Positions 475-61,546 of a stretch of 64,000 nt of DNA are shown here, in pieces; positions within the stretch are counted from its first letter, which is position 1; each line of letters starts with the position of its first letter. The DNA comes from a virus. The notes below the pieces were generated by a model. It did not search any database, had not been told where the DNA came from, and was given only the letters and a program-made list of their open reading frames with translations. The translations under genes were made by a program, and so were the position numbers. The DNA lies in the IMG/VR virus record IMGVR_UViG_3300014502_000004, positions 13,564 to 77,563 of that record. One strand, written 5' to 3'.

Positions 475-747
475 ATGCCGCATAAGCTAGTAGATCTTGA
501 ATGTCAGTCCTGTGGTCACAAGTGGGAAGACCTTGTGATGCCTGGGGAGTCTAGAGAGGACTTGCATGGATGTCCTGAATGTGGTTCAACCAAGGTCGTC
601 CTGCTGCCTGGTGGAGTCGCTACAAAACTGCATGACCCTGCTGTGAGAGATGAAGCTCTCAAGAAGCGTAGCATTGATCACTCCAACAAGCATGCAAAGG
701 AGAATCTAGAAAAGTTGCAGCACAAGGGTGTGCTCAGGATGAAGTAG
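475..747 (+). CDS. FmdB-like zinc-ribbon protein
   Basis: GGGAGG RBS then ATG 475; CxxC(GHKWE)...CPECGS. Confidence 0.7.
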   Translation: MPHKLVDLECQSCGHKWEDLVMPGESREDLHGCPECGSTKVVLLPGGVATKLHDPAVRDEALKKRSIDHSNKHAKENLEKLQHKGVLRMK

Positions 748-787
748 TTGCATTACCAAGACCTGCTTAGCAGGCACAAGGACAAGC

Positions 788-5481: not shown

Positions 5482-6039
5482 TTGATGATCGAAAGATTAT
5501 GCCAGAAGTGTGGTAGATCATTTAAAGTATCCCCATGCATAATTCGTTCTGGCCATGGCATTTTTTGTAGTAAAAGTTGTTCTGCAAAGTCAAGAAAGAA
5601 TCCTGCTGGACCACAGAATGGTCCTAACAATCATAACTGGAAGGGAGGAGTGATTCTTTCTACCAAGGGATACTGGTATGTCTGGAGACCCGATCATGTT
5701 AGGGCAGATAAGAAAGGTTATGTAAAACGAGCTGATTTGATTATGGAAGAAGTGTTAGGTAGATCGCTAGAGAGTGATGAGGTTGTACATCACGGTCCTG
5801 GTGGTAAGGAAGATGATTCTCCAGGTAATTTAAGTGTAATGATCTCTAAGGACCATTCTAGTTATCATTGTAAGAATAATCAAAGATTGAAAAGATATAA
5901 ATGGCCCTCTGATGAGCAATTGTTAGAATTCAGAAAGAAATTGTCATTTCGAGAATTGGCTAAAATTGTTGGCTGTAGTGACAGTACAGTACGCCAACAT
6001 ATTAAGCGAATTCTTGAATCTCGGAGGATCAATGGCTAG
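5482..6039 (+). CDS. Free-standing HNH homing endonuclease (N-terminal Cys zinc finger, C-terminal HTH)
   Basis: CxxC..FCSKSC, NHNWKGG, EVVHH..DDSPGNL..H..YH; AT-richer than flanks. Confidence 0.85.
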   Translation: MMIERLCQKCGRSFKVSPCIIRSGHGIFCSKSCSAKSRKNPAGPQNGPNNHNWKGGVILSTKGYWYVWRPDHVRADKKGYVKRADLIMEEVLGRSLESDEVVHHGPGGKEDDSPGNLSVMISKDHSSYHCKNNQRLKRYKWPSDEQLLEFRKKLSFRELAKIVGCSDSTVRQHIKRILESRRING

Positions 6040-23546: not shown

Positions 23547-23577
23547 TGTAAAACGATGGGTTGGGTTGTACTATAGG
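23547..23577 (+). promoter_or_regulatory. Conserved phage promoter-like motif, copy 2
   Basis: TGTAAAA-N12-TTGTACTATAGG at the head of the accessory gene array. Confidence 0.8.
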
Positions 23578-31333: not shown

Positions 31334-31364
31334 TGTAAAATGCCTCTCTCGTTTGTACTATAGG
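31334..31364 (+). promoter_or_regulatory. Conserved phage promoter-like motif, copy 3
   Basis: TGTAAAA-N12-TTGTACTATAGG directly upstream of GGAGG RBS and the histone gene. Confidence 0.8.
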
Positions 31365-36301: not shown

Positions 36302-36927
36302 AATCAAATCCGAGATTGTATCTATTGGTGAAGGCAGGAGCAGATCAGGAATCTGGTGGCCGCACTACGATGCCTTCTGGGGGTCAGGCCAAGCGTGAAG
36401 ATGAGCACAGCTACTCTCGGCAGCCTGAAGGGGAGAGTGGTGATCCTACCGCAGACACTGCCGAGGAACGATGGCATGGTTCTGGAACCGAGACTGATGA
36501 GGATGACCCTCACAAAGATGACAATGAGCAGACTGGTGAGGAGCGGGATGTTCAGAAGGTGTGGTCCAATCCTCAGGTTCCTTTCCAGCAGAAGGATGTA
36601 GCTGAGGCTCCTGCGGAGGCACCCGGGGATGCACCTGGGGCAGCCCCCGGAGTCATTCCTGGGCAGCAGCAGGCCCCTCCAGGAGAGCAAGCTTCTGTCG
36701 TGAAGAGCCTGATGGCTCAAGCCATGAAGGCATTTGCTGGGGCTCCTCGTTTTGCTCAGGGTCCATTGGTTCCTCCTCGTGAGAAAGAGTGGCTCAAGAC
36801 TCAGGGGTATTCCCCCGATGAGATCGATTCAGGTCAGGTTCAAATCACTTCTCGAATGAGGGGTGAGTTCAATCGTTGGCTTCAAGGAACCATCAGGAAG
36901 TCTCTTGGTGGTTTGATGAGGGGATAA
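36298..36927 (+). CDS. Putative head cargo protein
   Basis: PRLYLLVKA, VVKSL and IRKSL motifs. Confidence 0.6.
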   Translation: MKSNPRLYLLVKAGADQESGGRTTMPSGGQAKREDEHSYSRQPEGESGDPTADTAEERWHGSGTETDEDDPHKDDNEQTGEERDVQKVWSNPQVPFQQKDVAEAPAEAPGDAPGAAPGVIPGQQQAPPGEQASVVKSLMAQAMKAFAGAPRFAQGPLVPPREKEWLKTQGYSPDEIDSGQVQITSRMRGEFNRWLQGTIRKSLGGLMRG

Positions 36928-36929
36928 CG

Positions 36930-38846
36930 ATGATTGCTCCCCCTGTGGACTACACTGAGATTCAGAAGTCGATCTCAGCTCAAGAGATGCAAGAAGCCTA
37001 TCAGGAAGTGGGACGGTTAAGAAATGTCACTTCCCACATTCCTGTTGCTGCTAGAAAAGAGCCAGGGGCTCTTCAGAAGGCATATCGTGGTCTTTCAGAT
37101 ATGGGTCCTAATCGTGGTCCCAAGTCTGCCTTCTTCGATCCTCTCTCACTTCAGTATGCGATGGGGTACAAGGACCGTCGCTATTCTCTGACCTATGATG
37201 TTCTCAAGCGATGTGCAACTCAGCTCTCAATTGTTGCTGCTATTGTCAATACTCGAATTGCTCAGATTGCATCGTTTGCTGCTCCGTATCGAACCACGAA
37301 GTCTCTGGGGTACATGGTCAAGCACAAAGACCCAGAGCACATGACAACTCGTGCTGAGCGTGAGTTCATCAAACAGCTTGAAGCATTCGTTGCTAACTGT
37401 GGTGAGCCTGGAAAGAAGAATATCTACAGTAGAACTTCAAGGGATGATTTTGAGTCATTCTTGAAGAAGGTTGTTAGAGACACATTGGTCTATGATCAGC
37501 TTTGTTTCGAGATCGTTCCTAGAAACAATAGAATCCCATTTGAGTTTCTAGCAATTGATGCAGCCACGATCAGAATTGCATCTACAGATCGCGATGCTGG
37601 TATTGGTTTTAGCTACCATGCTCGAAATCCTGTGGCCCCTCTTGGTGGTCGTTTCGCTGCCCTCTATGAGAACAAGCAGTATGGGGCATTGACAGGAAGC
37701 GGCTACGGTGGATTCTCTGATCCTGTCACCGATCAAGATGTGCAGTTTGTTCAGATCATCAATGGTCAGATCGAGAACGTCTACAGTGAGAGCGAGCTGG
37801 CTTTTGGTGTTCGGAATCCTCGTACTGACATCTACATTCAGCAGTACGGTTATGGTGAGATTGAACAGCTCATCACCATCGTGACTTCTCTCCTCTTCTC
37901 TGAGGAATACAACCGTCGATATTTCACCCAAGGTTCTCACCCCAAGGGTTTGCTTAACTTCAAGGGTGATAACTGGACACCAGATCAGCTTGAGGCATTC
38001 CGTCGGCAGTGGGTTGCTACTGTGGCGGGTGTTGAGAATGCATGGAAGACTCCAATCACTCAGTCTGAAGGAATTGAGTGGATCAACCTTCAGATGACCA
38101 ACAAGGATATGGAGTTCTCCACCTGGATTGAGTATCTAATCAAGATCATTTGTGGTGTGTACCTGATTGACCCAGCAGAAATCAACTTCGACCTTCATGG
38201 TGGTGTGCAGCAGACGCCACTTTTTGAATCAAGTCAGGAGTGGAAGCTCAAGGCATCTCGTGATCGTGGTCTGAAGCCGCTCCTTAGGTTCATTGCCAAG
38301 CTTATCAACAAGCATGTCATTGACAAGATCGATGATCATTTCGTGTTCGAGTTCGTTGGGCTTGATGAGCTGACGGAACAAGAAAAGCACGAGATGATCA
38401 AGGAGCAGATCGCAAGCTACATGACTCTTAATGAAGCTCGTCGGTCTCTCGATCTTCCTGACATTCCGCTGGGTGATGTTCCACAGAATCCTACCTATGT
38501 TCAACTGTTGCAGATCTACAACCAGAACATTCAGCAGCAGCAAGCTCAGCAGCAGCAACAGCAGCAGATGGAACAGCAGCAAGCGATGGCAGCTCAGCAG
38601 GGTCAACTTCCTCCTGGGGCCGAGCAGCAGGGTCAGCTTCCTCCTGGTGCTGAGTCCCCCCAGGGTGGACAGGTTGTGAGGGCTCCCGGTCAGCCCGGTG
38701 AGGGAGGCATTCCTGCTGGTCAAGGTCCAGTTCCAGGCGAGAGGCCAGGAGCCACACCTAAGTACACAGCCAATTTCGGTAAGTCGATGAAAGAAATCGT
38801 TGTGACTTTCGACGATTGGATTGATCAAAAGAGGAGTGACAAATGA
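36930..38846 (+). CDS. Portal protein with Gln/Gly/Pro-rich C-terminal tail
   Basis: AIVNTR..Q, D.LVYD, IDAATIR, NPRTD..YGY.EIE, YFTQGSHPKGLL, DMEF..W, DPAEINF, GLKPLL. Confidence 0.92.
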   Translation: MIAPPVDYTEIQKSISAQEMQEAYQEVGRLRNVTSHIPVAARKEPGALQKAYRGLSDMGPNRGPKSAFFDPLSLQYAMGYKDRRYSLTYDVLKRCATQLSIVAAIVNTRIAQIASFAAPYRTTKSLGYMVKHKDPEHMTTRAEREFIKQLEAFVANCGEPGKKNIYSRTSRDDFESFLKKVVRDTLVYDQLCFEIVPRNNRIPFEFLAIDAATIRIASTDRDAGIGFSYHARNPVAPLGGRFAALYENKQYGALTGSGYGGFSDPVTDQDVQFVQIINGQIENVYSESELAFGVRNPRTDIYIQQYGYGEIEQLITIVTSLLFSEEYNRRYFTQGSHPKGLLNFKGDNWTPDQLEAFRRQWVATVAGVENAWKTPITQSEGIEWINLQMTNKDMEFSTWIEYLIKIICGVYLIDPAEINFDLHGGVQQTPLFESSQEWKLKASRDRGLKPLLRFIAKLINKHVIDKIDDHFVFEFVGLDELTEQEKHEMIKEQIASYMTLNEARRSLDLPDIPLGDVPQNPTYVQLLQIYNQNIQQQQAQQQQQQQMEQQQAMAAQQGQLPPGAEQQGQLPPGAESPQGGQVVRAPGQPGEGGIPAGQGPVPGERPGATPKYTANFGKSMKEIVVTFDDWIDQKRSDK

Positions 38847-42270: not shown

Positions 42271-43611
42271 ATGCTCATCTATCTTGATGAGGGTCTGTTT
42301 AAGATTTCAGACAAATTGTGGAAAGCTCTACCTAAGGGTAAAGAGGCATTTGGTAGTCGTCTGTCCAGATACGATGAGCCGGCTACACCAAAGGTGGCGA
42401 AACCTGCTGTTGCTGCAGTTCCAAAACCTACTACTCCTGCTCCCGTGCGTGGGCCAGACGTTTCGTCTCCAGGTCATCAGCTGGCCACACACGAAGCAGC
42501 TGCTGGTCATGCCCAACATGGGTACATGATGCACATGCTGAATAATGAACCAGAACATGCCAGAAAAATGTTGGGCATGTATCAGACTCACACTGCTCGT
42601 GCTGGTATTCTGAAGCAGCAGGGAGCTGTGACTACTCCACAACATCACGAAGATTTAGCTGTTCATTATCACTTGAATCGAGATCAGTATTCTGGGAGTA
42701 AGACTCCTGTTTATTCTAGAATCAAAGCTCATCTTCAGCACGCTGGTCATCCTCCTGGGACTGACATCAATGATGTAGCGGAAGCTCATGCTACCAAGAC
42801 CAAAGAATCTGCAGAAGGGGGGTATGGTCCGTATAGTTCCAGCAACAATAAGATGGGGACAGCGGCTCCTTATGCAGATAAGCCGATTGGTGCTGAGGAA
42901 GGGACTTCAGTTAGGCGTCGGGTAGCGAAGTCTTTGATTGATTGGGATTGTGATCTCATCAAAGCTAAGGTTGGTAGACATATTGATCTTTCCAAGGATG
43001 CTTTGCAGAGGAAGCTCAACGGTGGTCACTATTCTTTGGTGTCAGCTGGCAGGAACATAGAAGACCCAGAAGAGAAGGATCTGCCAGAGAATCATCCCAA
43101 GTTCTTAGCCAGGCATGAGAAGCTTAGAAGTGATCTAATCAACCATGGATTAGATCACACTGAGGTTGAAGGTCATTGGGGTGGTAAAGAGAAGTCATTT
43201 CTAGTTCATCATGTACCAAAGGCTAAGGTTGCCACTCCTAGGAATGTGATGACAAAGACATTCATGGTTCATCACAATGATCCTAGTGAGCATAGCACTG
43301 TCAGAGATCTGGCTAAGAAGTACAATCAGAATAGTGTCATCCACTCAAAAGGTGGATATCATGAGTGCCATTATGTAACTGGTGCAGATGCAGGAACCCA
43401 TAACAAAGGCGCAGGTCATACTCTGAAGCCTGAAGCTACAGACTTGTACACTGAAGTTCCTCATCCCAACAAGACATCAACCAAGTTTGAGCTGAAGTTG
43501 GATTGGAATAACAAGCATCCTGCAAAGACTGCTGTACTGAAATCACTGACAAGACTGTACATCAACAAGACGAGTCTGAAGAAGGCGTTTCCTCTCTTCA
43601 TTCGTCTGTAG
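42271..43611 (+). CDS. His-rich head cargo protein with DUF3293-like domain
   Basis: SLVSAGRN...L.SDL...G......G.WG..E.SFLV...LAKKYNQNSVI. Confidence 0.6.
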   Translation: MLIYLDEGLFKISDKLWKALPKGKEAFGSRLSRYDEPATPKVAKPAVAAVPKPTTPAPVRGPDVSSPGHQLATHEAAAGHAQHGYMMHMLNNEPEHARKMLGMYQTHTARAGILKQQGAVTTPQHHEDLAVHYHLNRDQYSGSKTPVYSRIKAHLQHAGHPPGTDINDVAEAHATKTKESAEGGYGPYSSSNNKMGTAAPYADKPIGAEEGTSVRRRVAKSLIDWDCDLIKAKVGRHIDLSKDALQRKLNGGHYSLVSAGRNIEDPEEKDLPENHPKFLARHEKLRSDLINHGLDHTEVEGHWGGKEKSFLVHHVPKAKVATPRNVMTKTFMVHHNDPSEHSTVRDLAKKYNQNSVIHSKGGYHECHYVTGADAGTHNKGAGHTLKPEATDLYTEVPHPNKTSTKFELKLDWNNKHPAKTAVLKSLTRLYINKTSLKKAFPLFIRL

Positions 43612-44243: not shown

Positions 44244-45647
44244 ATGGTTCTTACCAGAGCCCAGATCGAGAAGCTTGCTGAGATCATCCGTCAACATGCT
44301 ACCTGGTTTGCTTGGCGGGTTTTCGGAGAGCAAGAGATCTCAGACAAGGATTTGCAGCAGCTCAAGTCGAGCGGCAAGCTGCCAATGGATGTCCATGCCC
44401 AGTCGATCAAGTATGCCTATGTCCTGGGTAAGCTAGAGTCTGTCCTCAAGGAAGGTGAGTACAAGAATCTGAGCTGGACCCAGCTGCAGGAGGCTGCAGA
44501 GGGCAGGTACACGACGGTCGACAAGCTGGCCATTGATGCTGCTGAGCTGTCTGCTCACACGAGGTTCAGGAACCTCATTGATGATATGAGGAATGGTCTG
44601 TACCAGAAACTGTCCCAGGCCACCAACCAGACCATTTCAGAAGCCAGCATCAAAGAGACCATCGCTGATAAGATCAGAACTGGTGTAGATCTGAGCCAAG
44701 CCTACACCAAGGTTGCTAATGAGCTGGTAGATGCTCTGCAGGAAACCAAGAGGAATTGGTCACGAGTAGCAGCCACAGAGATGCACTCAGCCCGTCAACG
44801 TGGGATTGCTGCTGCCATCATTCAGAAGGAAGACATCTACAAGTATTCTGACGGTATTGATAGCAATGTAGCTGTGGTCCATGACTACGATATGTGTGAT
44901 GACTGCAGGCGTTTGTACTATGATCCTAAGACAGGTAATCCAAAGATCTTCAAGCTGAAGGAGCTGCTTGATAACGAGGGTTCAAATTATCGTAGACCAT
45001 GGCGACAGAATGCTAAACCTGTACTCCCACCAGCTCACCCCCACTGTTATGGAAGACTTCATTATGTTCCTGCTGGATGGGGATGGGATGACCAGCATGA
45101 GTTCACTCTTCTAGATCCAGCTGAAGCCTATCCTGAAGTGGTGAAGGGCAAGATTCTAGACGTTCCCAGCTACAGGCAGAAAGAGAAGTACACCTGTGGC
45201 CCATCTGCATTTCTTGCTGTGCTTGAGTATTACAAGTTCAAGGATGTTCCTGATGAGAAGAAGCTAGCTGAAGCCCTTGGATCAACTGAAGAGGGTGGAA
45301 CAAGACCAGAGGATATCGAGAAGCTGGCGAACAAGTGTGGTCTCAAGGCTTCGATTCAAGAACCAATGGAGATTGATGATCTTGAGAAGCTGACTGATGA
45401 TGGTGTGCCGGTCATTGTTGCTATGCAGGCATGGCGGGACACGAAGGCTACACCTTGGGCGAGTGATTGGGATGATGGTCACTACGAAGTGGTGATCGGT
45501 GTGGACAAAGATGAGATCCATTTCGAGGACCCATCTGTGTCGAAGAAGAGAGCGTTCATCCACAGAGATGAGTTTTTGAAACGTTGGCATGATGTTGATC
45601 GAGATGGAAAGAAACGAATCCATCTTGGGATAGTGATACGACCATGA
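44244..45647 (+). CDS. MuF (Mu gpF-like) minor head protein fused to a C39-like cysteine peptidase
   Basis: RVAATE, CDDC, PPAHPHC (MuF); Q....CGPSA, GHYEVVIG, EDPS (papain-like C39). Confidence 0.85.
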   Translation: MVLTRAQIEKLAEIIRQHATWFAWRVFGEQEISDKDLQQLKSSGKLPMDVHAQSIKYAYVLGKLESVLKEGEYKNLSWTQLQEAAEGRYTTVDKLAIDAAELSAHTRFRNLIDDMRNGLYQKLSQATNQTISEASIKETIADKIRTGVDLSQAYTKVANELVDALQETKRNWSRVAATEMHSARQRGIAAAIIQKEDIYKYSDGIDSNVAVVHDYDMCDDCRRLYYDPKTGNPKIFKLKELLDNEGSNYRRPWRQNAKPVLPPAHPHCYGRLHYVPAGWGWDDQHEFTLLDPAEAYPEVVKGKILDVPSYRQKEKYTCGPSAFLAVLEYYKFKDVPDEKKLAEALGSTEEGGTRPEDIEKLANKCGLKASIQEPMEIDDLEKLTDDGVPVIVAMQAWRDTKATPWASDWDDGHYEVVIGVDKDEIHFEDPSVSKKRAFIHRDEFLKRWHDVDRDGKKRIHLGIVIRP

Positions 45648-46750
45648 ATCCATTCGATGAGCTTGAGATGATCTCCAAGGGTGAGTTGATTCCTGGTGGC
45701 AAGGCTTCAGGAAAGCCAAAGCCCCAGGATGATCATGAGTCCAAGAAGACTGGTCGTGAGATTGAAATGGAGCATGTGGAAGGCGGTCCTTTGCCCAAGA
45801 AGGTGAAGGAAGCTGTAGCTGATGAGATCCACGATGATCACGTCGAAGAACATCCTGGTTACTATGATGACAAGATTGGTCTTCCAGCCATGGAGCGCCA
45901 ATTGGACAAGGTGGGGAAGTCTGATTCAGGCTCGTTCCGTGGTGGTGATCCTGAGCTGGCTCAGCAGAAGCAGCAGGAAGCCAAGGATGAGGCTGCAGAT
46001 CAAGATATGGGTGGGGATGATGCTGGGGATGATGCTGGGGATGCAGCTGAGCCAGATGAGGATGCTGAGATCGCTCAGCAGGACAAAGATGATACGAAGT
46101 CTGACAAGATGGCGAGCCTGACGAAGGCTGGTGGATTCCCATCTATTCCAATGGGCAGTCAGGAAGTTTCGCCTGTCAACACGGATGAGGACTACTTTGA
46201 TGACAGAGATCCCAAGCGGAACGTCAACAATTACTATCTTCAGTTCCGTGGTCGTCAAGCCCCATTCAAAGAGCCTTGTCCGTTGGATCGCCGTGAACAC
46301 CAACATGAGGTCTGGTCAGAGGCTCTGGGTTACCGAATCCCCCTTGAGGGGAACCCCGCTATGTATCTCCGTAGGTTCAATTTAGCTGGGGACAAGGAAG
46401 GATATGAGCAGGCTTTGAAGGAGGTTTTTAAATCAGACCAGGATGAACAAGAACCAGATCAGAATCCTGAGCAAGATTCTGAGCAGGGTGAGTCTAATGA
46501 AGAGGAGCCACCTGGCCCCAAGATGTTGCTTCAGCATCTAAATGAATTTAGCAAAGATCAATTGATTCAGATTTCCAAGAAGATCTGGGGTGACGACTAC
46601 AATTATCAGGATTGGATGGATGACGATTATATTAGAAATGATATTGCTGGTTCACTGATGGATCTACTGGAAGGTGATGGAGATAATCCATTTGAGGATG
46701 GAATGGATCAGCAGCCTGAGGAATCGGAAAGTGCTTCCTCTGCTGATTGA
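45644..46750 (+). CDS. Acidic head cargo protein (DUF5661-like G..IEMEH...DH..E...YY)
   Basis: GREIEMEH..A.EI..DHVEEHPGYY; ISKG, VGKS, LTKA, VFKS. Confidence 0.6.
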   Translation: MNPFDELEMISKGELIPGGKASGKPKPQDDHESKKTGREIEMEHVEGGPLPKKVKEAVADEIHDDHVEEHPGYYDDKIGLPAMERQLDKVGKSDSGSFRGGDPELAQQKQQEAKDEAADQDMGGDDAGDDAGDAAEPDEDAEIAQQDKDDTKSDKMASLTKAGGFPSIPMGSQEVSPVNTDEDYFDDRDPKRNVNNYYLQFRGRQAPFKEPCPLDRREHQHEVWSEALGYRIPLEGNPAMYLRRFNLAGDKEGYEQALKEVFKSDQDEQEPDQNPEQDSEQGESNEEEPPGPKMLLQHLNEFSKDQLIQISKKIWGDDYNYQDWMDDDYIRNDIAGSLMDLLEGDGDNPFEDGMDQQPEESESASSAD

Positions 46751-49700
46751 CATAACCAAGGCTCGCAAGGGTGAGCATGTTGGTGGCAAGTACATTCTTC
46801 GTTGGTGGAAGAGTGAACGCTGGAACTATAAGTATTCAGATCTACAGAATCCGAATCATGGTCCAGCCAGTACAGCTACTGAGAAGCACACCATTGATGT
46901 ACATCCTCAATCACTGAGGTCCGAGCATTCCCCTGAGCAGGCGTTTCACTATGCCAGGCATCAAGCTCTGAGAGGAACAAAAGAGCACACTGCAGTTATT
47001 CTGTCCAAGAAGGGGGCTCCAAAGTACAAGGTCCTGGTTCGCCCATCCTCTGTCAGACCGATCATCATTCTGCCTCCAAACTCAAACCAAGCTCAGGATG
47101 CTATCACTACCCTTCCAAACTTTGCATCGTTGGATAACTGGGCTCATCGGAGAAGGACAACTAGAACTGTCCGTGACGCTCAAGGGAAGCCTTGGTTTGA
47201 GTTGAGGGACCGTGGACCTACCAGGGACAATCCCAGTGGCAAGATGAGTGTCAGGTACTGCGCTAGCAGTCCTCACAATCCCTTCCCTGGTGAGCCTCCT
47301 CAGTGGGCTGCCAGCCCATTCACGAAGGAGACGGCCAAGGAGTGGATAAAGGAGCAGCGGAGGCAGCAGAGAGCCTCTGGGCAGCGTGTGAAGCCTGCCA
47401 AGAGGTTTCCTATCGATAGGGATAGGCCAGCCACTACAGCTCTTGAGCAAGGTCGAATCACTTGGACCAGAGTTCGTAAGCCGTACTCCATTGTGTTCCA
47501 TGAGAGGACTGGCAAGACCACACAGCGTCGTGGGACTAGACCCATAAGACATGCTCAGTTCAAATCTGATGAAGATCGAAAGAACTTCTATGCCAAGGTT
47601 GTGAAGGAGCATTTTGGTCAGATAGTGCTGTACGCAGAACGTCAATTGAAGATGTACAATATATTTGATGTAGAGCAAATGGCTAGACTTCTTGGCTACT
47701 ACGGTGGTCCTGGTCGTTCTTCCAATATCCAGATTGAACCAGAGTCACCTACCATGACTGCTGTTGAGAGAGCAGTCAATTCTTATGATCCTGAGAAGGG
47801 TTGGAAGTTCAATACCTATCTTGGTCATTGCCTGTGGTGGGAAAACTTCAAAGAGACAAAGAAGATACTTGGTGAATTAAAGGAACGGCAGAAGATGGTC
47901 ACGACGTTGGACCACAGTGGTCACACCCATGATGTGATCACGAATCTTCAACGCAAGGATATGCATCCTGACCATGAGGCAATTGTCAGTGTAGGGGCAC
48001 ACACAGGTGAGCCAGATGTGAACCTGCTGGCGAAGCAGGAGAAGCTGAAGGATTGGTCCACCAGGCAAGAGGACAAGATTGCTCGCTTCACAGCAGCAGC
48101 TGGTGATGACCACGAGAGGCAGGTAACATCCTTTCTTGCTGCCACTGATCTACATGAGATCAAATCTCCTGAGCAGGCTCAGGCATTCATTGCTCACTGG
48201 CAGTCTGATGGTGGGGACGAGTTCGTGGAGCCCTATGAGGCTGAGGAAGTATCTAGACCCAAGGTCAAGATTCCTGCCAGCGAGAAGAAGTCCTGGGTGA
48301 CCATGGTGACAGAGCATCCTCTGCTTTCTTCGGCTGAGAAGGCGGCTCTACTGACCTTTGCTCCTAAAGGTGATCTTCAGAACATTCGACCGTTCACAGA
48401 GGTGTCGCTGGAGTTGGCGAAGAAGCATTCGAAAGAGTTTTCTCGTCCACCGTCTGAGCATCAATTGGTTGACATCTTTCTGAGTGCCCACCAGAAGCTG
48501 GCCGGTCTACCGGAGTTTGAGGCAATGCAAGCAAAGCTCTCTCCAGTGATGAAGGCGATCAATCTCATTCGAAAGCTTCAGCTCGACAAGATCTCCCAGG
48601 CTTCAGATATTCTTAGGAAGGCCAAGAAGGGGGAGAAGGTTCAAGGCTACAAGTATTGGAAGCGGGAGGGGGTTCCTGGTCACTACAAGTATTACTATCA
48701 TGATGCAAAGGGAAACATCATTGAAGGGACTAATGCTCCGGAGGATCATAAGCATCATCAGCCGTCATTAGGTTCTCCTCAGGTGGCCAAGAACGAGCCA
48801 ACTCAGAAGGAAAACCCTGAGTATTTTGATGCCAAGGGTCGGAAGATGAATCGGGCAGTTCCAGATCATGCTGAGTGGAATCCTGAGTATGACAAGGATA
48901 CTCACAGCAAGAGATGGGCAGCTCGTTGGCCTAAGGAAGATGGGTCTGACTACGAGTACGGTTATCCTGATTCTGATGTTCAGGAGAACAAGGAACTCTC
49001 AATCAATACCAGCAACAAGCATCTGGATGAGCAGCTGCCAAAGGTTCGCAAGGCTTACAAGTCACTGATGGGTTCTGATGCTCTTTCAGATCGTGCTCTT
49101 GGTTTGATGGTTGCTTTGCTTGACCAGGCTTTCATGAGAGTAGGTAAAAAGGCTCATGAGCAAGCAACAGGTCATGTGGCTTTGGTTTCTCTCAAGAAGT
49201 CCAATGTCAGTGTGAAGGGTAATGTTGTTTCGTTCTCTTATATTGGTAAGCGTGGAATGGAACAGAATCAGAATGTGGTTCTTGATTCTAAAGCCATGGG
49301 GATTGTCAAAGATCTCCTGACTGCACCCGGAAAGAAGGACAAGGATTACTTCTTCTCTGTGCCAGTAAAGCGTGGTGGTAGGACCAAGTACCAGGAGATC
49401 GGCTACAACAAGCTCGTGAGAAACCTGCAGAGCCTTGGTGTTCAGGCAAAGCAGTTTCGTTCTTATCATGGCACCAGGCTCTACTCAGAGTATTTCGAGG
49501 AACTGGCTGAGAAGATCAAGGGTAAGCCAACAGGACAGATGCTGGACAAGATCTCTGAAGCCGCAGCTATGAAGGTAGCCGCAGCTCTGGGTCACTTCAA
49601 GAAGGAAGGCGAAGATCAGAAGACTCACACAGCTAATGCCTTCAGTAGCTACATCGATCCTGTTGTGGTGAAGACTCTCTATCTCAATTCGCTGCATCCT

Positions 49701-50171
49701 GATTTCAACAAGTCGATTGAGGAAGTTGAGAAATCTCATCCTGTCGAAGAGAAGGTTTCATATGATGGGGTGAAGATCGATATAGAGAACAAGAAGGGGA
49801 GCACCAGGAACTGGTACGATCCGAATGAGGACAAAGAGGGCAAGACCAGGATGAACTACGACTATGGGTTCATTCCTCACACGGAGGGTGTGGATGGGGA
49901 TGGGGTTGATGTGTATATTGGTCCAAGCAAAGATTCGGCTCGTGTGTTTGTGATCCGCCAGATGAAGGGGCCTGACTTCAAGAAGTATGATGAAGACAAG
50001 GTGATGATGGGGTTCAGCTCACCTGAGGAAGCCAAAGCAGCCTACATGAAGCAGTATGATGACCCCAAGTTCTTTGGTGACATGAAAGAGATGACCATTC
50101 CGGAGTTGAAAGAGAAGATCAAGGATAAGAAGTACGAAGGCAAGATGCTCAAGTGCGTTAGTCTGGGGTGA
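46731..50171 (+). CDS. Polyvalent polyprotein: sigma70-like regions 2/4 + type IB topoisomerase + inorganic pyrophosphatase
   Basis: AV..YDPEKGWKFNTY; MRVG/IGK/FRSYHG/LGH/SYIDP; IENKKGS.R..DYG.I..T.G.DGD.VDVY. Start uncertain (frame open from 46674). Confidence 0.85.
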   Translation: MLPLLIDITKARKGEHVGGKYILRWWKSERWNYKYSDLQNPNHGPASTATEKHTIDVHPQSLRSEHSPEQAFHYARHQALRGTKEHTAVILSKKGAPKYKVLVRPSSVRPIIILPPNSNQAQDAITTLPNFASLDNWAHRRRTTRTVRDAQGKPWFELRDRGPTRDNPSGKMSVRYCASSPHNPFPGEPPQWAASPFTKETAKEWIKEQRRQQRASGQRVKPAKRFPIDRDRPATTALEQGRITWTRVRKPYSIVFHERTGKTTQRRGTRPIRHAQFKSDEDRKNFYAKVVKEHFGQIVLYAERQLKMYNIFDVEQMARLLGYYGGPGRSSNIQIEPESPTMTAVERAVNSYDPEKGWKFNTYLGHCLWWENFKETKKILGELKERQKMVTTLDHSGHTHDVITNLQRKDMHPDHEAIVSVGAHTGEPDVNLLAKQEKLKDWSTRQEDKIARFTAAAGDDHERQVTSFLAATDLHEIKSPEQAQAFIAHWQSDGGDEFVEPYEAEEVSRPKVKIPASEKKSWVTMVTEHPLLSSAEKAALLTFAPKGDLQNIRPFTEVSLELAKKHSKEFSRPPSEHQLVDIFLSAHQKLAGLPEFEAMQAKLSPVMKAINLIRKLQLDKISQASDILRKAKKGEKVQGYKYWKREGVPGHYKYYYHDAKGNIIEGTNAPEDHKHHQPSLGSPQVAKNEPTQKENPEYFDAKGRKMNRAVPDHAEWNPEYDKDTHSKRWAARWPKEDGSDYEYGYPDSDVQENKELSINTSNKHLDEQLPKVRKAYKSLMGSDALSDRALGLMVALLDQAFMRVGKKAHEQATGHVALVSLKKSNVSVKGNVVSFSYIGKRGMEQNQNVVLDSKAMGIVKDLLTAPGKKDKDYFFSVPVKRGGRTKYQEIGYNKLVRNLQSLGVQAKQFRSYHGTRLYSEYFEELAEKIKGKPTGQMLDKISEAAAMKVAAALGHFKKEGEDQKTHTANAFSSYIDPVVVKTLYLNSLHPDFNKSIEEVEKSHPVEEKVSYDGVKIDIENKKGSTRNWYDPNEDKEGKTRMNYDYGFIPHTEGVDGDGVDVYIGPSKDSARVFVIRQMKGPDFKKYDEDKVMMGFSSPEEAKAAYMKQYDDPKFFGDMKEMTIPELKEKIKDKKYEGKMLKCVSLG

Positions 50172-51657: not shown

Positions 51658-52158
51658 ATGGCAAAAGTAGATTGGGCATCAACTCAGGAAGCTGTGGATC
51701 TGGTTGAGGCTCCTGGTGATGAGATTGAGTTTGACGATGATGGAAACATCATTCGCAACACTTTCACCGAGCAAAAGGAAGCTCAGCCCCAGCAAGGAGC
51801 TGAGGAGCCTGATGAGGACGAAGATAATACTGGTGAGGATCAGGACGAGCCCATGACGGCTCAGGTTTCTTCCAATCCTCCTGATAGGACCGACAGTGAA
51901 CAGGGTTTCAGTGAGTGGCTTCATTCGCATCCTGTTCATGAGACTGATGATGAGTGGGATCAATTGACGTTGGGTCAGGGCAAGATGCACACTCCTAAGT
52001 CTGAGGATGATGGAGAAGAGGTCGAGAATGCGGACGCCAAATCTACTGATTCGGGACAGCAGAATCCTGGGTCTGATCAATCAGGTGGAGAAGAGTCTCA
52101 AGACGGAAATGAGGACTATTCCTACCTCGACGAGTGGGGAAGGGGAAAGAAGGAATAA
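51658..52158 (+). CDS. Highly acidic disordered protein
   Basis: D/E-rich, 166 aa. Confidence 0.6.
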   Translation: MAKVDWASTQEAVDLVEAPGDEIEFDDDGNIIRNTFTEQKEAQPQQGAEEPDEDEDNTGEDQDEPMTAQVSSNPPDRTDSEQGFSEWLHSHPVHETDDEWDQLTLGQGKMHTPKSEDDGEEVENADAKSTDSGQQNPGSDQSGGEESQDGNEDYSYLDEWGRGKKE

Positions 52159-55100
52159 GGTTGTCCTAGGATTTGATGCACCGATTCCGTTTGAAGATCT
52201 CTCCAAGGCAGGTCGGCATTCTGCAACCAAACAGAGAGCTTGGCAGAAGCTTACCCAAGCTGTTGCAGGAACCAAAGGCGCACCCAACATCAAGAGACTG
52301 AATGCAGGTGAAGGTGGGTCAATTGATCTTGGTGAGCTGGGAGCTGGTGAAGCTGCCTGGGTGACACCACAGCGTGGTCCTGCTGCTGGTCGCCATGTGT
52401 TGGTGGCCAAACGTCCAGATGGTGATTTTGCTCTCATTGGTGGTATGCATACCCCTAATACCAGAATCGACTCAAAGACGGATGAGGAGTACCTAGTTGA
52501 TGACCAAGGGAAAGATCTGTCTGATGAGTCTGGCAAGCCTCGTAAAGTGACCCCAGAGGATTATCTGACTCACATCTCCCATCGGCATTTTGCTTTCAAG
52601 CAGCGTCAGAAGCCGACAACAGAATCAGAGGAAGAGAAGACTAGACGAGCTGAGCATGCTGTTCATGCTGAGAAGAGACGAAAGGCACAAGTAGAATATC
52701 GTGGAGCCCGTATGACGGCTCGTAAGCTGGTCAAGACCCATGAGACCAGTCTTCGGGAGACTCTTGGTTTGGCTGAGGGCACTACGTTGACGCCAGAGGC
52801 ACACGAGAAGATTGCTGCGACCTTTGAGAAGTCAGCTCTCGACTTTATGAAGAAGAAGAACATTCCGCTTGATGCTGATACCAAGCAGTTTGCGGCTGAG
52901 TTTGCCAAGAGAGCCACGAAATGTTTCAGAAGAGAGAGACTGAAGAAGATCGAGAAGATTCAGGAAGTATTGCTTAGTGCAGCGAAGAAAGGTCGTGATG
53001 GTAAGAGCACAGCAAGTGAGATGAAGCAACTGAAGCAGATGGCCACCAAGATCAAGGCCAGCACGGATCCTATTGATGAAACGTTGATGCAGAGTCTGCA
53101 AGATCTAAAAGACGGAAACATGTTTGATGCAGACAACAACATGGATCTTGCTGCAGACCAGATGGTTACCTCTGCATTTGATCATGCTGCACAGCTAGCA
53201 GCAGAAGAGACTTCGCAGCCAGAAGAAGATGAGGATTCAGGTAACCTCAACCAGGTCAAACCTGACAATCAGAATCTATTGGATCTGATCGAAGCCGATA
53301 AGAAGGCCGCAACGGTCGACACTGGGCTAAACCTGTCTTCGGCAATTTCACGATTCAAGACTGCAGAGAAGGTTAAGAAGGAAAAGAAGATCAAAGAGAA
53401 GGTGATGGTGCCCCAGTATGCTCAGGTGGATGCAGAGCCTGAGTTTGAGAATGAGGCTCAGCAGAGGGTCTTCTTTGACAAGGTGGGTGAGGACCAGACC
53501 AAGTTTGCTGCATCTCGTGTGGCTGCTGATAGAGCCTGGGCTGAGATTCGACGCATTTCTGAGGAGGCTGCTGCTCAGGGTATAGAGGAGCGTCCTCGCA
53601 CTGCTGTGTCACCAGAGGAGTTGGCTACTTCATTTGAGAGTGTTGAGAGCGCGATGGCAAAAACGGGTGTCACCAAGGACGACATCCGTAAGGAGATGAA
53701 GCTTCTAGAGACTGCTCAGAATGCAACATCTCCAACAGGTCCTGGGATGTACACCGTCATCAATGAATTCTGGAATGACAAGTCAGGCAACCTTCTCGAC
53801 TCTCATATGAGGAGAGGATCAGAGTATGCTTTGTCTGGGATGTTGTCGGAACATCTTCCACCAGAAATTCTGGCCACTGAAGAGATTCAAGGACTGTTGG
53901 GCCGGATGTCTACCAGGGTAAAGTTCAACGAAAAGTCGCAGCGGTTTGAAATGGTAATGGGTAAGGGGATGCAGTCTCAATATGGTGGTTTGGTCCATCG
54001 AACGTCTGCATCTGTGGCTCCGGTTATTGTGGCCCATAGGTTGTCTCAACTAGCCCAGCGTGGGGAAGCTGAAAGAGTGCGAGTTCGTGAACTGGAGAGG
54101 ACGATCAAAGATCCAGAATCTCAGCTAAAACGACGTGAGAAGTCTGAGATGGGGAAAGAGATCGAAAAGCTGAAGGAGAGTCCATTCTTCCAGCATTTCG
54201 GTCAAAAAGATTTTGATCACATGATTCAGTCTGTTGATGGCTGGAACAAGAAGAAGATTCTCCAGGTCGAAGACAAGGCTATGGATGAGGATCGGGCTCT
54301 TCGGACGAGAATCGAAGAAGAGGAGAAGCAGTTAGCAACGGGTGAGATTATCCGTCCCGAGGATAAGGTAGGAGTTGATGAGATCAATCCTCGCAGTCGT
54401 CTGGCTTCTATGCTCCAGAAAACCGAGAGTCTTGAAGCTCTTCGCCGTCGTCGACAGGAGAATCTTGGTTTGGCTTTGGGTTCTCTTGAAACTGTAGCTG
54501 CTCTGAATGTGGCTTTGCGAGAGTCAAGTGCCAAGGGTCAGTTGCGAGCAGCTGGTATCTCCAAGATTCCAGAAGAGGGAGAAGTAGGAGAGAAGCTGAA
54601 GTATGTGACCTCACCAAACATCTCTGAAAGAAACGATGTCAGGATCGATGTACCAGGTCCAGTTGAACATGAGGATCCTGACCAAAGAGATCTGTTGAGG
54701 CACACAGCGAAGCTTGCTGCTTATGACTATGCTAGGAACCAACTTGGGTTGTCTGACAACGAGATCCATGAGGTTGATGGAACTGCCATGGCAGTTCCTA
54801 GAGGAAAGTTGGCTGTCATTGGTGTTGACAAGAATGGTGCTCACGTTCGTGTGAAGCTTGGTGGTCCAGTAACACAAGCAGAGATAGAGGCTCAGGCATC
54901 TGGGAAGAAGACGAGGGCTCGTGGGTTGCTGGACAAGATTCCTCGTATGTCATCTCAACAATCTGTTGAAGATCGAAATGTTGACATCAAAAACAATCAG
55001 ACGTTGCCAACTCGTGCAGATCATCCTCCCCTTATCAGGGAGACAATGAGGTCAAACCCTGATCTTCCTATGGAGATGAAGCTAGCTCAATACAACGCTT

Positions 55101-57993: not shown

Positions 57994-58029
57994 AAAGGGA
58001 GACGGGTCAAGAACCCGATCTCCCTTTTT
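57994..58029 (+). terminator. Terminator/attenuator hairpin
   Basis: AAAGGGAGA-CGGGT-CAAGA-ACCCG-A-TCTCCCTTTTT. Confidence 0.7.
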
Positions 58030-58045
58030 GCATTCCAGAGTCAAG

Positions 58046-58963
58046 ATGATTGATCTCATCAAGAGCGACGAATTCGACTTCTTCCTCCCCTTGGAGATCA
58101 ATCTCGCCAAGGCTGCTCAGTTCAACATTCCAGAGGTCAAGAAAACCAACGGGCGAAGTAGGATCATATTTGGAATCTCTTCCACAGAGGACATTGATCT
58201 CCAAGACGAGACAGTGTTTCAGCGTGGGATCGATTTCAGCTACTTCCTCTCTCATGGTTACTACAACAACGATCACAAGCCAGGATTCGAGAACAAGGTG
58301 GGTCAGCCTCTGGAGGCCAAGATCACTTCAGAGGGTCTGTGGACCAGGGGCTACCTTTGGGAGCCTGGGGTTCATAAGGTTGCTGATGCGATCTGGGAGC
58401 TAGCGAATGCGCTGCTCTCTTCCAACTCAGATCGCCAGCTGGGGTTCTCGATTCAGGGCAAGGTCGTGCGGCGTGAAGGCAAGCGGATCCTGAAGTGTTG
58501 GGTTCAGGACATTGCCATTACTGCTGCCCCAATCAACACCAACACCTGGCTTGATGTTGTGAAGTCTCTCTCTGAGGTTCCTGCAGAGATGTGGTGTGAA
58601 CATGAGTCGGGACTTCTCATGCCAGAACAAACCATGAAGTCGATTCCTTGTGCTTGCAAGAAGCCGTGTGGCATGTGCAAGAAGTCGATGGATGACAAAG
58701 ATACTGATCTCAAAAAGAAGAAGGAGGAAGAAGAGAAATCTCTTAATGCTGTGTCTGAGTCTGGTCGTGCTTTGACCCCACAGAGTCTAGAAGAAGGTCT
58801 CTCCGATCAGCGATGGGGTCATGTTGAAGATTCACCTAAGGATGTCAGCAAAGGTTTGTCCTTTGATGACTGTGTAGATCTGCTTCAGAAAGTACGTGGA
58901 CTTTCAAGAGTTGAGTCCATGGTCCTGACCGAAGCAGTCTTTTCGATGAACCGAGCCAACTGA
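58046..58963 (+). CDS. Prohead protease
   Basis: GISSTEDIDLQDE.V.Q.GID...F...GY.N.DH, LGFSIQG, AIT..P.N. Confidence 0.88.
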   Translation: MIDLIKSDEFDFFLPLEINLAKAAQFNIPEVKKTNGRSRIIFGISSTEDIDLQDETVFQRGIDFSYFLSHGYYNNDHKPGFENKVGQPLEAKITSEGLWTRGYLWEPGVHKVADAIWELANALLSSNSDRQLGFSIQGKVVRREGKRILKCWVQDIAITAAPINTNTWLDVVKSLSEVPAEMWCEHESGLLMPEQTMKSIPCACKKPCGMCKKSMDDKDTDLKKKKEEEEKSLNAVSESGRALTPQSLEEGLSDQRWGHVEDSPKDVSKGLSFDDCVDLLQKVRGLSRVESMVLTEAVFSMNRAN

Positions 58964-58974
58964 GGAGATTGAAG

Positions 58975-60033
58975 ATGAGCGAGAAGATCACGCAGCAGGA
59001 CTTCTTCAAGTCTCTGGAACGGCTGGAGGCACTCGCCAACGGTTCGGGTCAGGAGCAGATCGACAAGTCGCAGATCTGCACTGGTCCCAACAGCGAGGTC
59101 ACCGACTGGGCCGGCGGCAAGAAGAACGAGATCGGCAACAACTGGAATGACAGCATGACGGGTGGTGGCACTGACTATAACGGTGGTGCCAAGACGCTCA
59201 AGAAGGCCCGCAAGGAGATCGCCAAGAAGATTCGGAAGGGCACTCCCCTTGACCCGAATGAGGTGGCTCTCCTGAAGAGCGACTATGAGGCCAAGTCTAT
59301 GGGCCAGCCCCCTATGGGCTTCAAGAAGGCCGATGATGAGGGTCAGTCGTCCCTGGCTGGGCTGTTCGGCAAGAAGGACGACAAGGATGATGACAAGAAG
59401 CCCTTCCCGCCCAAGAAGGACGACGACAAGAAGGACGATGACAAGAAGAAGCCCTTCCCGCCCAAGAAGGATGACGATGAGGACGAGGATGATGAGGACG
59501 AGCCTGTGATGGGCAAGTCCCTGGCGGGTGCGGTGTCTGAGAACGAGACTCTGCGTAAGGGGATTGAGGTCAGCGAGTTCCTCGCTGAGTTCGCCAAGTC
59601 CTTCGCTATTGGTCTCCAGGGCACTGAGGCCAGGATCACGCGAAACGTGATCGGCCAGGTGCTGGGTGCTTTGAATGAGTTCACCGGGAGCCAGGCCAAT
59701 TTCAACAAGTCGCTGGCTGAGGCAGTGGTGAGTATTGGTCACGGGATCAACGGCACCATTCAGCAGGCCGAGCAGGTGGCTCAGGCCCCGGCTGGTCCGC
59801 CGAAGTCTCAGCTCCGTGCCATGCCCCAGCAGCAGCCGGGCAACGTGAACGTGCTTCAGAAGGGTCAGCAGCAGGGCAACCAGCTGAGCAAGGCTCAGAT
59901 CCTTGACCAGATGTCCGATCTGGTCGTGAAGGGCAAGCTGAACTCGCTGGAGGTCATCAAGTACGAGAGCACGAACCAGATGTCTCCGGCAACGGAGGAT
60001 ATGGTCATGAAGAGTTTCGGACAGGCGGGCTAA
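58975..60033 (+). CDS. Capsid scaffold/core protein
   Basis: Between protease and MCP; many K-S sites; KKPFPPKKDDD repeats. Confidence 0.7.
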   Translation: MSEKITQQDFFKSLERLEALANGSGQEQIDKSQICTGPNSEVTDWAGGKKNEIGNNWNDSMTGGGTDYNGGAKTLKKARKEIAKKIRKGTPLDPNEVALLKSDYEAKSMGQPPMGFKKADDEGQSSLAGLFGKKDDKDDDKKPFPPKKDDDKKDDDKKKPFPPKKDDDEDEDDEDEPVMGKSLAGAVSENETLRKGIEVSEFLAEFAKSFAIGLQGTEARITRNVIGQVLGALNEFTGSQANFNKSLAEAVVSIGHGINGTIQQAEQVAQAPAGPPKSQLRAMPQQQPGNVNVLQKGQQQGNQLSKAQILDQMSDLVVKGKLNSLEVIKYESTNQMSPATEDMVMKSFGQAG

Positions 60034-60091: not shown

Positions 60092-61546
60092 ATGTACGGT
60101 CAGATTTCACTGCGTCACTACGAAGGGCTGAACGGCTTTGGCACCGCTCCTGCGATGGACGTTGCCGAGCTGCAGAAGGCTCTTGAGGCTGGCTACCAAG
60201 TCGTCAACCAGACGGGCGGTTCCGCTCTTAGGGTTGAATCGCTTGAGGCAAGCCTTAAGGTGGTGACATTCACAAATCATCACATCAAGTTTTGGAAGAA
60301 GATTCCCAAGTCGCCTGCATACTCGACGGTTGAAGAGTACAATCAGCTGATCGATTACGGTCCTAGCTCGTTCGCGTTCACGATGGAAGGAGAACTCCCT
60401 CCCTCGACAGACACGAACTATGCGAGGCGCACCCAGCTCGTGAAATTTATGGGCACTACTCGCGAGGTTACCCACCCCGCGACGTTGATCCATCCTGCTC
60501 ACGGGGATGTGATTGCGCTCGAAAACCAGAACGGCATTCTCTGGCTGCTGGAGCGGACTGAGAACGCTCTCTTCCAGGCGGACAGCTCGCTGGCTTTCGA
60601 TGGTGAGGCTGAGCAGTGGGATGGTCTGGATGCTCTGATCGACGCTACCTCTTTCGTGGATCTGGAAGGCCAGCCCATGCAGGAGGCTGATGTCGAGGAG
60701 GCCAGCAACCTGATCATCGAGAACTTTGGTTACCCGACGGACATGTTCCTGGGTACCCGACCCATGAGTGATCTCGTCAAGACGATGTATCCTCGTGAGC
60801 GTGTGAACCTGCCGGCTCCGACCAATGGGGTCATCGGTCAGGCAGTGACTTCGATGGCTACCCAGGCGGGCACCATCGAGTTCAACCCGAGTGTGTTCCT
60901 TCGTCGGCTTCCTGTGCCGCCGACCTCCCCGACCTCTGCCAACGCTCCTGCGATCCCGGCTATGGTTGCTGCTGTGGCTACGGTTCCCGGTGCTGGTGGC
61001 ACTGGTGACTTCAACAAAGCTGCCCCTGCTGGCGACCTGAACTACTATTCCTACGTCGTGACGGCATGCAACCGTTTTGGTGAGTCCGGGATGTCCCCGC
61101 TCATGGCCAACGGTGTCCAGATGACGCAGGCTTTCAAGGATGCCTTCCGGTATATGGCTCTGGCGTGGAACAACGCTGCGGTCATTGGGGCATTCCCTCC
61201 GGAGTATTTCCGAATCTATCGGAGCACTCCTCAGACCACCAATGCTCAGGTCACGGGCGCGGCGAACTACAGTCTGATCATGCAGGTTCCTGCCATCACA
61301 CAGGTGGCTGGAGCTGCTGGCAACATCGCGAGTGACGTGAACTTCCTTCTGCCGTTCACGTACCTGGCTTATCTGGGCGAGCTGACTCCGAATGTCATCA
61401 CGTTCCGTCAGCTGGCTCCGATGATGAGGCTTGATCTTGCGGTGCTGGCTCCTGCGTACCGCTGGATGATCCTTCTGTACGGCACGCCGATCCTTTTCGC
61501 GCCGAAGAAGTGGCTCCGCATGATCAACATTGGTCAGGTGGTGTAG
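60092..61546 (+). CDS. Major capsid protein (SPO1/Twort-like)
   Basis: ELQKAL.AGY..GGSALRVESLE.SLK..TF, AYSTVEEY, EG.LP, QWDGL..LI, PMMRLDLA...ILLYG. Confidence 0.92.
   Translation: MYGQISLRHYEGLNGFGTAPAMDVAELQKALEAGYQVVNQTGGSALRVESLEASLKVVTFTNHHIKFWKKIPKSPAYSTVEEYNQLIDYGPSSFAFTMEGELPPSTDTNYARRTQLVKFMGTTREVTHPATLIHPAHGDVIALENQNGILWLLERTENALFQADSSLAFDGEAEQWDGLDALIDATSFVDLEGQPMQEADVEEASNLIIENFGYPTDMFLGTRPMSDLVKTMYPRERVNLPAPTNGVIGQAVTSMATQAGTIEFNPSVFLRRLPVPPTSPTSANAPAIPAMVAAVATVPGAGGTGDFNKAAPAGDLNYYSYVVTACNRFGESGMSPLMANGVQMTQAFKDAFRYMALAWNNAAVIGAFPPEYFRIYRSTPQTTNAQVTGAANYSLIMQVPAITQVAGAAGNIASDVNFLLPFTYLAYLGELTPNVITFRQLAPMMRLDLAVLAPAYRWMILLYGTPILFAPKKWLRMINIGQVV

Follow-up and report, generated by a model that had tools for sequence, protein, structure and literature searches.

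Introduction

Phages start infection by using host sigma factors, by injecting a whole RNA polymerase (RNAP), as in N4, phiKZ and crAss-like phages, or by injecting enzymes that modify host RNAP, such as Alt of phage T4. In T4 the capsid-targeting sequence of the internal proteins and of Alt is removed by gp21, and Alt ADP-ribosylates host RNAP. The type IB topoisomerase (Topo IB) of poxviruses is packaged in the virion core and is reported to aid early transcription. Phage N4 carries a virion RNA polymerase (PMC4496689). In polyvalent proteins, which occur in phages and conjugative elements, many effector domains, InPase among them, share one polypeptide encoded in the neighbourhood of head genes; such proteins have been proposed to be released proteolytically and delivered along with the DNA (Iyer, Burroughs, Anand, de Souza, Aravind 2017; PMC5512222). 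The subject of this report is a polyvalent protein encoded by open reading frame (ORF) 46731-50171 of a 64,000-nucleotide (nt) stretch of viral DNA, hereafter the window, which forms part of the 77.5-kb IMG/VR record IMGVR_UViG_3300014502_000004 (approximately 53% complete). A diverged sigma70-family module, a Topo IB and an InPase pyrophosphatase are joined in this protein by linkers that contain candidate sites for the prohead protease.

Several features are held in common with the described polyvalent proteins, namely the presence of several effector domains, the location among head genes and an InPase lacking the beta-hairpin insert (PMC5512222). At least two unrelated effector domains in one polypeptide beside head genes distinguish such proteins, and this arrangement is observed here. 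In contrast to them, no MPTase self-processing domain was found in ORF 46731-50171; no sigma factor appears as a polyvalent-protein domain in the cited paper, in which the word 'topoisomerase' occurs solely in a reference title (PMC5512222). A sigma-like module within the theme of polyvalent, ejected proteins is unprecedented. Particle-borne proteins enable the first phage transcription in N4, phiKZ-like and crAss-like phages, and the same idea is put forward here; those phages carry whole polymerases, whereas here only a sigma-like specificity subunit for the host core enzyme would be carried. The T4 internal proteins and Alt have a short propeptide at the N-terminus and then a protease site common to the capsid protein, and a candidate arrangement of this kind occurs here. 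The sites are of the form hydrophobic-x-K↓[A/S] here and L/I-x-E↓ in T4 (the arrow marks the cut, presumed in the present protein), and the cargo would be a sigma-like module here and is a modifying enzyme (Alt) in T4. T4 cargo is ejected with the DNA, one component acting on host RNAP, and the same is proposed for the present protein.

Organisation of ORF 46731-50171

The features of the ORF and of the flanking head genes are collected in Table 1. The 1146-amino acid (aa) protein looks like two fused units, because a 35-residue header occurs twice, at the N-terminus and at an internal junction, and opens both of them. Unit 1, from aa 11 to approximately 608, is an alpha/beta domain of no known family followed by the diverged sigma70-family module. 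Unit 2, aa 630-1146, is a type IB topoisomerase followed by the InPase pyrophosphatase. The AlphaFold2 model of the full-length protein has a predicted local distance difference test score (pLDDT) of 65.7. For the N-terminal domain (aa 59-279) nothing usable was obtained from Pfam or the ESM Atlas, and a profile search of PDB sequences returned noise only (E>0.28).

Table 1. Features of ORF 46731-50171 and of the flanking head genes. Positions are those of the window.
Feature	Residues (aa)	Position (nt)	Strand	Remarks
Portal protein		36876..38846	+	Upstream border of 19-kb cargo block
Polyvalent protein ORF	1-1146	46731..50171	+	GTG start, single open frame, 130.8 kDa, isoelectric point 9.3
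Candidate N-terminal propeptide	1-10	46731..46760	+	ITK↓A (aa 8-11); K10, A11 in 11/11 homologues having the N-terminus
Low-confidence start	1-58			Beta-hairpin (AlphaFold2)
Header, copy 1 (35 aa)	4-38	46740..46844	+	Hydrophobic-D-hydrophobic-x-KA-[RK]KGE, then predicted beta-hairpin ending W-x-YKY
N-terminal alpha/beta domain	59-279	46905..47567	+	pLDDT 73-87; matches no known family
Sigma domain-2-like helical domain	283-385	47577..47885	+	Helical segment (AlphaFold2)
Three-helix segment	433-500	48027..48230	+	Helical segment (AlphaFold2) at sigma region 3 place in collinear alignments; W442, R445, Q446, E447 invariant
C-terminal helical domain of sigma-like module	516-600	48276..48530	+	Helical segment (AlphaFold2) at sigma region 4 place in collinear alignments
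Long low-confidence stretch	603-761			Includes second hairpin (AlphaFold2)
Candidate protease site VMK↓A	606-609	48546..48557	+	K608, A609 in 12/12
Header, copy 2	623-658	48597..48704	+	Includes ILRK↓A and second hairpin; start of second fused unit
Type IB topoisomerase	about 701-990	48831..49700	+	Pfam match 762-962; AlphaFold2 domain 762-990; R803, K840, R910, H955, Y974
Short low-confidence linker	990-1008			AlphaFold2
Candidate protease site VEK↓S	999-1002	49725..49736	+	K1001 then A or S in 12/12
InPase (polyvalent-protein type family I pyrophosphatase)	1007-1131	49749..50123	+	AlphaFold2 domain 1009-1131; DGDxVDV and DEDK motifs retained
Prohead (head maturation) protease		58028..58963	+	phrog_1028, E 2.8e-41; presumed processing enzyme
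Scaffold		58969-60033	+	
Major capsid protein		60092..61546	+	ELQK↓A at aa 25-30, kept in SPO1-type capsid proteins

The sigma-like module

Sequence profiles and the predicted fold both place a sigma-family domain 2 in unit 1. Its core motif, aa 344-373 (nt 47760-47849), has 16 invariant columns out of 30, a conservation unmatched elsewhere in the first 740 residues, and opens with AVERAVNSYDPEKGWKFNTY (aa 344-363, nt 47760-47819). The aromatic positions W358, F360, T362, Y363, W369 and W370 are retained, the equivalents of which act in strand opening in sigma70. A profile of the module (aa 283-612) was built from nine sequences, those of the window and of eight related contigs. When this was compared with all PDB sequences, 12 matches were obtained at E<=10 (best E 0.015), every one of which was a sigma factor (SigE-N, RpoS, SigA, WhiG) aligned at sigma regions 2.1-2.3. 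A search of 1.84 billion representative proteins yielded only seven matches at E<0.001. Five were family members or fragments and the sixth, P0018, is a protein of 1638 aa with Topo IB and InPase also aboard. The remaining match, P0020 (E 4.8e-4), is a protein of 209 aa that stands alone, matches Sigma70_r2 at 43 bits, over the cut-off, and has in common with the module a three-residue insertion in the core motif. Alignment of the profile with P0020 using hhalign gave a probability of 97% (E 8e-11, 94 columns, 32% identity). Relatives of P0020 in the phage collection are the annotated sigma factors of Rhizobium phage RHEph10 and Bacillus phages CP-51 and Shanette, and the profile aligned with sigma gp12 of CP-51 at a probability of 86%.

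The sigma factors of SPO1-like and other large phages compared here (those of CP-51 (gp12), Shanette and RHEph10, and P0020) share with the module the region 2.2-2.3 motif NSYDP-x-KG-x-x-F-x-x-Y ... W-x-E-F. They differ from it in being free-standing proteins of 200-270 aa encoded in early or middle gene regions, whereas the module is internal to a head-block protein of 1146 aa, and in that region 4 of the module is unrecognisable by sequence.

A separate model of aa 283-612 had a pLDDT of 71 overall and of approximately 80 in the domain-2-like part. Most of the top 50 Foldseek matches to this model were sigma chains, none of them at E<=0.001. In a search of 48,161 chains independent of Foldseek, places 1 to 9 were all taken by sigma factors; matches included SigB (Z 8.6), the sigma70 fragment 1sig_A (Z 8.4, root-mean-square deviation (rmsd) 2.1 A, 70 residues aligned), SigE-N and 8b3z (Z 8.1-8.6) and sigma28 (Z 7.9). 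A second structure search list contained sigma factors in 49 of 50 rows, and VIA-align superposed the model on sigma28 (9wsf_A) with Z 9.3, rmsd 2.2 A and 22% identity over 78 aligned residues. Matches to the sigma domain 2 fold spanned Z 8-9.3 and rmsd 2.1-2.5 A; according to the tool's own note VIA Z scores of 8-9 can be reached by chance for helical models, but here sequence evidence obtained independently points to the same residues. The long structural alignments are collinear, pairing model residues 1 to approximately 322 with residues 372-613 of E. coli sigma70, from region 2.1 to the C-terminus. The segments at the places of regions 3 and 4 agree in order and size with those of sigma factors; the one at the place of region 4 is collinear by structure with the C-termini of sigma70, sigma28 and SigB, and aa 516-600 matched 9m7y_F at Z 6.1. 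On the predicted structure, though by sequence only region 2 is recovered, a complete sigma comprising regions 2-4 is likely. Such a module may bind core RNA polymerase; a complex prediction of its domain-2-like part with residues 230-340 of the E. coli beta' subunit, a stand-in for that of the host, scored 0.00 and weighs neither way.

Two further sigma-like ORFs and two promoter-like motifs were observed. A free-standing ORF of 174 aa (L001:1495-2016, corresponding to G000:C1 ~7810-8331 upstream of the window) scored 20-22 bits against Sigma70_r2, below threshold, and is a candidate phage sigma factor. A close relationship between it and the module of ORF 46731-50171 was ruled out (hhalign probability 2%). 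An ORF of 185 aa (5482-6039) contains a Sigma70_r4-type helix-turn-helix (PF04545, 22.9 bits, E 5e-6, under the cut-off) and may be a second small sigma-like protein or a helix-turn-helix regulator. The sequence TGTAAAA-N12-TTGTACTATAGG is present in three exact copies on the + strand (2844-2874, 23547-23577, 31334-31364), where none would be expected by chance. Each lies a short way 5' of a start codon, and the motif is promoter-like and phage-specific. Separate from it are sites of the form TTGAC-N17-TAGGNT, for example at 13460, 31569, 32553 and 57918.

Topoisomerase IB and pyrophosphatase domains

The topoisomerase domain was identified with PF01028 (E 1.1e-22, 81 bits against a cut-off of 23.7). 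All five residues of the catalytic pentad are invariant in an alignment of 12 sequences; R803, K840, R910 and H955 align with those of 6z01_A and the tyrosine lies within an S-x-Y-I-D-P motif. Sequence matches in the PDB included 6z01 and 2f4q, and Foldseek matched the model to bacterial, human and variola Topo IB with E-values of approximately 1e-9 to 1e-10 (3m4a_A, 3.5e-10; 2h7f_X, 1.3e-9). The poxvirus and Deinococcus radiodurans enzymes (2f4q/3m4a) have the same fold and the complete R-K-R-H-Y pentad. The setting of a virus particle is common to poxvirus Topo IB and, as a proposal, to ORF 46731-50171. The present domain differs from its poxvirus and bacterial counterparts in belonging to a phage protein in which it is fused to other modules, its activity and packaging being putative.

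The C-terminal domain matched PF18823 (E 2.2e-34, 118.7 bits against a cut-off of 26.8). Of its acidic site, D1055, D1060, D1087, E1088, D1089 and K1090 are invariant and D1057 nearly so in the same alignment. Among PDB sequences it matched the C-terminal domain of the phage portal protein 9b41_L (E 1.1e-14), and family I pyrophosphatases such as PPase 4z70 were matched by Foldseek. A comparison with viral models recovered phage InPase proteins and the stand-alone topoisomerases of phages PaBG and Motura. Judged by their conserved residues, both the Topo IB and the InPase look active.

These results bear out much of a preliminary description made from the DNA sequence alone, in which one ORF was said to hold three types of domain. 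The frame is single, with the quoted motifs in place; the topoisomerase said to retain R, K, R, H and Y and the C-terminal pyrophosphatase are both well matched, with their catalytic residues kept. Over ~47570-48520, where a sigma fold had been predicted, the fold of domain 2 was matched.

Putative protease sites and the repeated header

ORF 46731-50171 contains eight tetrapeptides of the form hydrophobic-x-K-[A/S]. Those that are conserved map to parts of low pLDDT, either N-terminal or interdomain, and K↓[A/S] are the only conserved residues of these otherwise variable linkers. VMK↓A follows the sigma-like module immediately and falls within aa 603-652, which the model draws as helix at low pLDDT, while K1001 of VEK↓S is the sole invariant column of a linker of 18 residues. 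Four linker motifs, in two pairs, had been listed in the preliminary description as the same as that of the capsid propeptide. VMKA and VEKS proved to be universal among the 12 sequences, ILRKA (aa 626-630, K629↓A630) retains K-[A/S] in eight of them, and FNKS (aa 992-995), in which K-[A/S] occurs in one of 12, falls away together with the other tetrapeptides that are not conserved, four in all. The propeptide motif ELQKA itself is present in the major capsid protein, and the surrounding L-x-K-A-L-E-A-G, including the K-A-L-E-A-G stretch, is common to SPO1-type capsid proteins.

When the window was searched with a hidden Markov model (HMM) built from both copies of the header, two matches and no more were obtained (i-E 2.5e-17 and 2e-18), both within ORF 46731-50171. 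The header was therefore ruled out as a module common to other cargo ORFs. The tetrapeptide is more widespread. It lies near the N-terminus in the major capsid protein, in protease and scaffold, and in most ORFs nearby: it is found in the first 40 aa of 12 of the 15 ORFs from portal to capsid and of 8 of the 54 elsewhere (Fisher p 4e-6, a value that is only indicative, as the test was defined after the pattern had been seen). Its density is 7.1 per 1000 aa in the head block versus 2.2. In the scaffold ten tetrapeptides (28 per 1000 aa) accompany a long acidic/basic stretch of KDDD repeats, features that fit complete degradation by the prohead protease.

Proposed role and alternative explanations

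That a sigma-like module, Topo IB and a pyrophosphatase are grouped after protease-type sites suggests a single coordinated action on the DNA as it enters. We hold it about evenly balanced that the protein is polyvalent head cargo which is packaged, cleaved and ejected, and then aids the first phage transcription. The precursor would be made late and built into the procapsid. No MPTase domain was found, and processing would therefore fall to the prohead protease, cutting after Lys at hydrophobic-x-K↓[A/S] to yield pieces of approximately 69 kDa (N-terminal domain plus sigma-like module), 42-44 kDa (Topo IB) and 17 kDa (InPase). These would be expelled from the head together with the DNA. The sigma-like piece might then capture host core RNAP, the topoisomerase might act as a swivelase that relaxes the entering linear DNA, and the pyrophosphatase might remove pyrophosphate, pulling nucleotide-adding reactions forward, so that the three activities would jointly favour the first round of phage transcription. 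No match to the phage RNA polymerase families PF00623 and PF00940 was found in the 77.5-kb record, which is about half of a genome and in which the PF00940 control matched nowhere; the host enzyme is therefore the likely partner.

A true promoter-specific sigma role for the module is possible but doubtful. The same caution applies to the sequence of events originally suggested, whereby a packaged sigma is freed by the prohead protease and injected with the topoisomerase and pyrophosphatase, redirecting host core RNAP before any phage gene is expressed; this can be entertained only tentatively. In the literature searched no injected sigma factor has been described. If the proposal is true, a sigma factor would here be delivered by the virion for the first time, adding a third means of early takeover to virion RNA polymerases and enzymes that modify the polymerase; an injected sigma would give cheap control of the host enzyme from the first moment of infection. 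Sigma-like and Topo IB domains would join the known modules of polyvalent proteins, and a short N-terminal tag ending hydrophobic-x-K↓[A/S] would serve as a rule by which the head cargo of these phages could be predicted.

Several points weigh against this proposal. The phage is uncultured, and we infer its packaging, cleavage and ejection steps throughout. A single-sequence Pfam search with the module gave Sigma70_r2 (PF04542) at 12 bits (E 0.18), below the curated cut-off of 24, and a PF04542 scan of the phage's own genome did not report ORF 46731-50171. Of the two sigma regions claimed at the outset, region 2 stands on the PDB profile matches, P0020 and the fold, whereas region 4 has the collinear structure only: by sequence it was found neither by Pfam at E<=10 (PF04545/PF08281), nor by searching the PDB with a profile of aa 510-606, nor by hhalign against P0020, and the region 3 segment likewise has no sequence support. 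The small sigma-like ORF upstream of the window could alone account for the phage-specific promoter motif. Four homologues do not have the internal K629↓A630 site. To these may be added the chance range of the Z scores and the post hoc enrichment test noted above. Capsid proteins of the A511/Twort type are probably cut after Lys; the literature searched contained no statement on the cleavage specificity of SPO1/Twort/A511-type prohead proteases.

The doubt over region 4 leads to an alternative in which the protein is packaged and ejected, while the sigma-like module binds host RNAP, or competes with host sigma at the clamp helices, as a decoy or inhibitor that shuts off host transcription, or serves as a tether holding the topoisomerase and pyrophosphatase to RNAP. 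Sigma likeness is demonstrable for domain 2 only, region 4 is needed for recognition of the -35 element, the module shares a predicted 69-kDa piece with a domain of no known family, and a separate small sigma-like ORF is available for promoter recognition. A pure decoy would nevertheless have no need of the melting and -10-type aromatics, which are invariant in the core motif, and the collinear alignment runs to the very end of the sigma70 segment 372-613; this explanation is considered unlikely. It was also considered that the sigma-like module might act without RNAP, as a DNA-binding or strand-opening domain that targets the topoisomerase or protects the phage DNA ends. Sigma domain 2 alone binds single-stranded -10 DNA in solved structures (3ugo_A, matched at Z 7.6), and module and DNA enzyme share one polypeptide. 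A conserved cleavage-type site nevertheless lies between the two and we know of no precedent for a sigma-like domain that works in this way, which leaves the idea very improbable.

The remaining alternative concerns not the module but the fate of the whole protein, which could be a late cytoplasmic multi-enzyme, acting for example on DNA topology in replication or packaging, with K-[A/S] as mere linker features. Packaging is not proven by gene position alone, presence in the virion of an uncultured phage is a deduction, and stand-alone phage Topo I genes exist (PaBG, Motura). Such an enzyme would leave several observations to coincidence: the same motif at the N-termini of capsid protein, protease and scaffold, the invariance of K1001 alone in its linker, and the repetition of the header with its site at the fusion junction. 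InPase is moreover a hallmark of virion and polyvalent proteins, and the unrelated contigs L006 and L009 described below encode a fusion of Topo IB with a head-type protein. A purely cytoplasmic function is therefore regarded as rather improbable, and head cargo remains the preferred interpretation.

Homologues and module exchange

An identical protein of 1146 aa is on record (P0002). Eleven homologues with 44-67% identity, all metagenomic, were recovered from among 5.8 billion clusters, and the family, at about a dozen metagenomic proteins, is very rare. A tblastn search of 50,697 phage genome records with the sigma-like module gave no match at E<=1. The clade consists of uncultured SPO1-like phages in which the position of the gene is kept within a block of enzyme-bearing ORFs. 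Five related contigs have in common the gene order portal, several ORFs, S-adenosylmethionine (SAM) lyase, C39 peptidase, 368-aa ORF, polyprotein, SNF2 helicase, protease, scaffold and capsid.

Within this order neighbouring genes are found fused. In P0005 and P0013 the SAM lyase domain is joined to the C-terminus of the polyprotein. In a distant relative, L005:6495-11666 (= L019), a single ORF of 1723 aa comprises the 368-aa ORF (45644-46750 in the window, with SFRGGDP repeats), the polyprotein and extra C-terminal modules, together with the F-x-x-W-[LI]-H-x-H-P-x-H-E motif of window ORF 51658-52158; K-[A/S] sites occur at most junctions and the sigma-like motif is much diverged. Such shuffling and fusion of modules among neighbours is the behaviour of polyvalent proteins (PMC5512222). 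In the unrelated viral contigs L006 (6174-8249) and L009 (9614-11689), Topo IB (PF01028, E 2.4e-34) lies inside a protein of 692 aa whose N-terminus is of the HWVTIDG type and whose C-terminal part is scaffold-like, ends that resemble head proteins. This suggests recruitment of Topo IB to head proteins on more than one occasion.

Head gene block

All genes of the window are on the + strand, and the major capsid protein is 40-43% identical to SPO1/CP-51-type capsid proteins of the Herelleviridae. The reported placement of the ORF between portal and prohead protease holds in a loose sense: 19 kb containing 11 ORFs, several of them enzyme-bearing, separate the end of the portal gene (38846) from the start of the protease gene (58028), compared with only approximately 90 nt in SPO1-like phages.

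Besides ORF 46731-50171, three of these ORFs have recognisable enzyme domains or motifs. ORF 42271-43611 (446 aa), with LWK↓A near its N-terminus, encodes a SAM lyase domain (PF23780, E 4.9e-7) and is a candidate packaged anti-restriction module. The 467-aa product of ORF 44244-45647 ends in a C39/papain-like cysteine peptidase domain (PF13529, E 5.6e-13), is kept in all related contigs and may act either as an effector or as an additional processing enzyme. Immediately 5' of the prohead protease, an ORF of 1799 aa (52007-57406) with SNF2/ResIII helicase motifs, also kept in relatives, is reminiscent of large packaged anti-restriction proteins such as DarB of phage P1.

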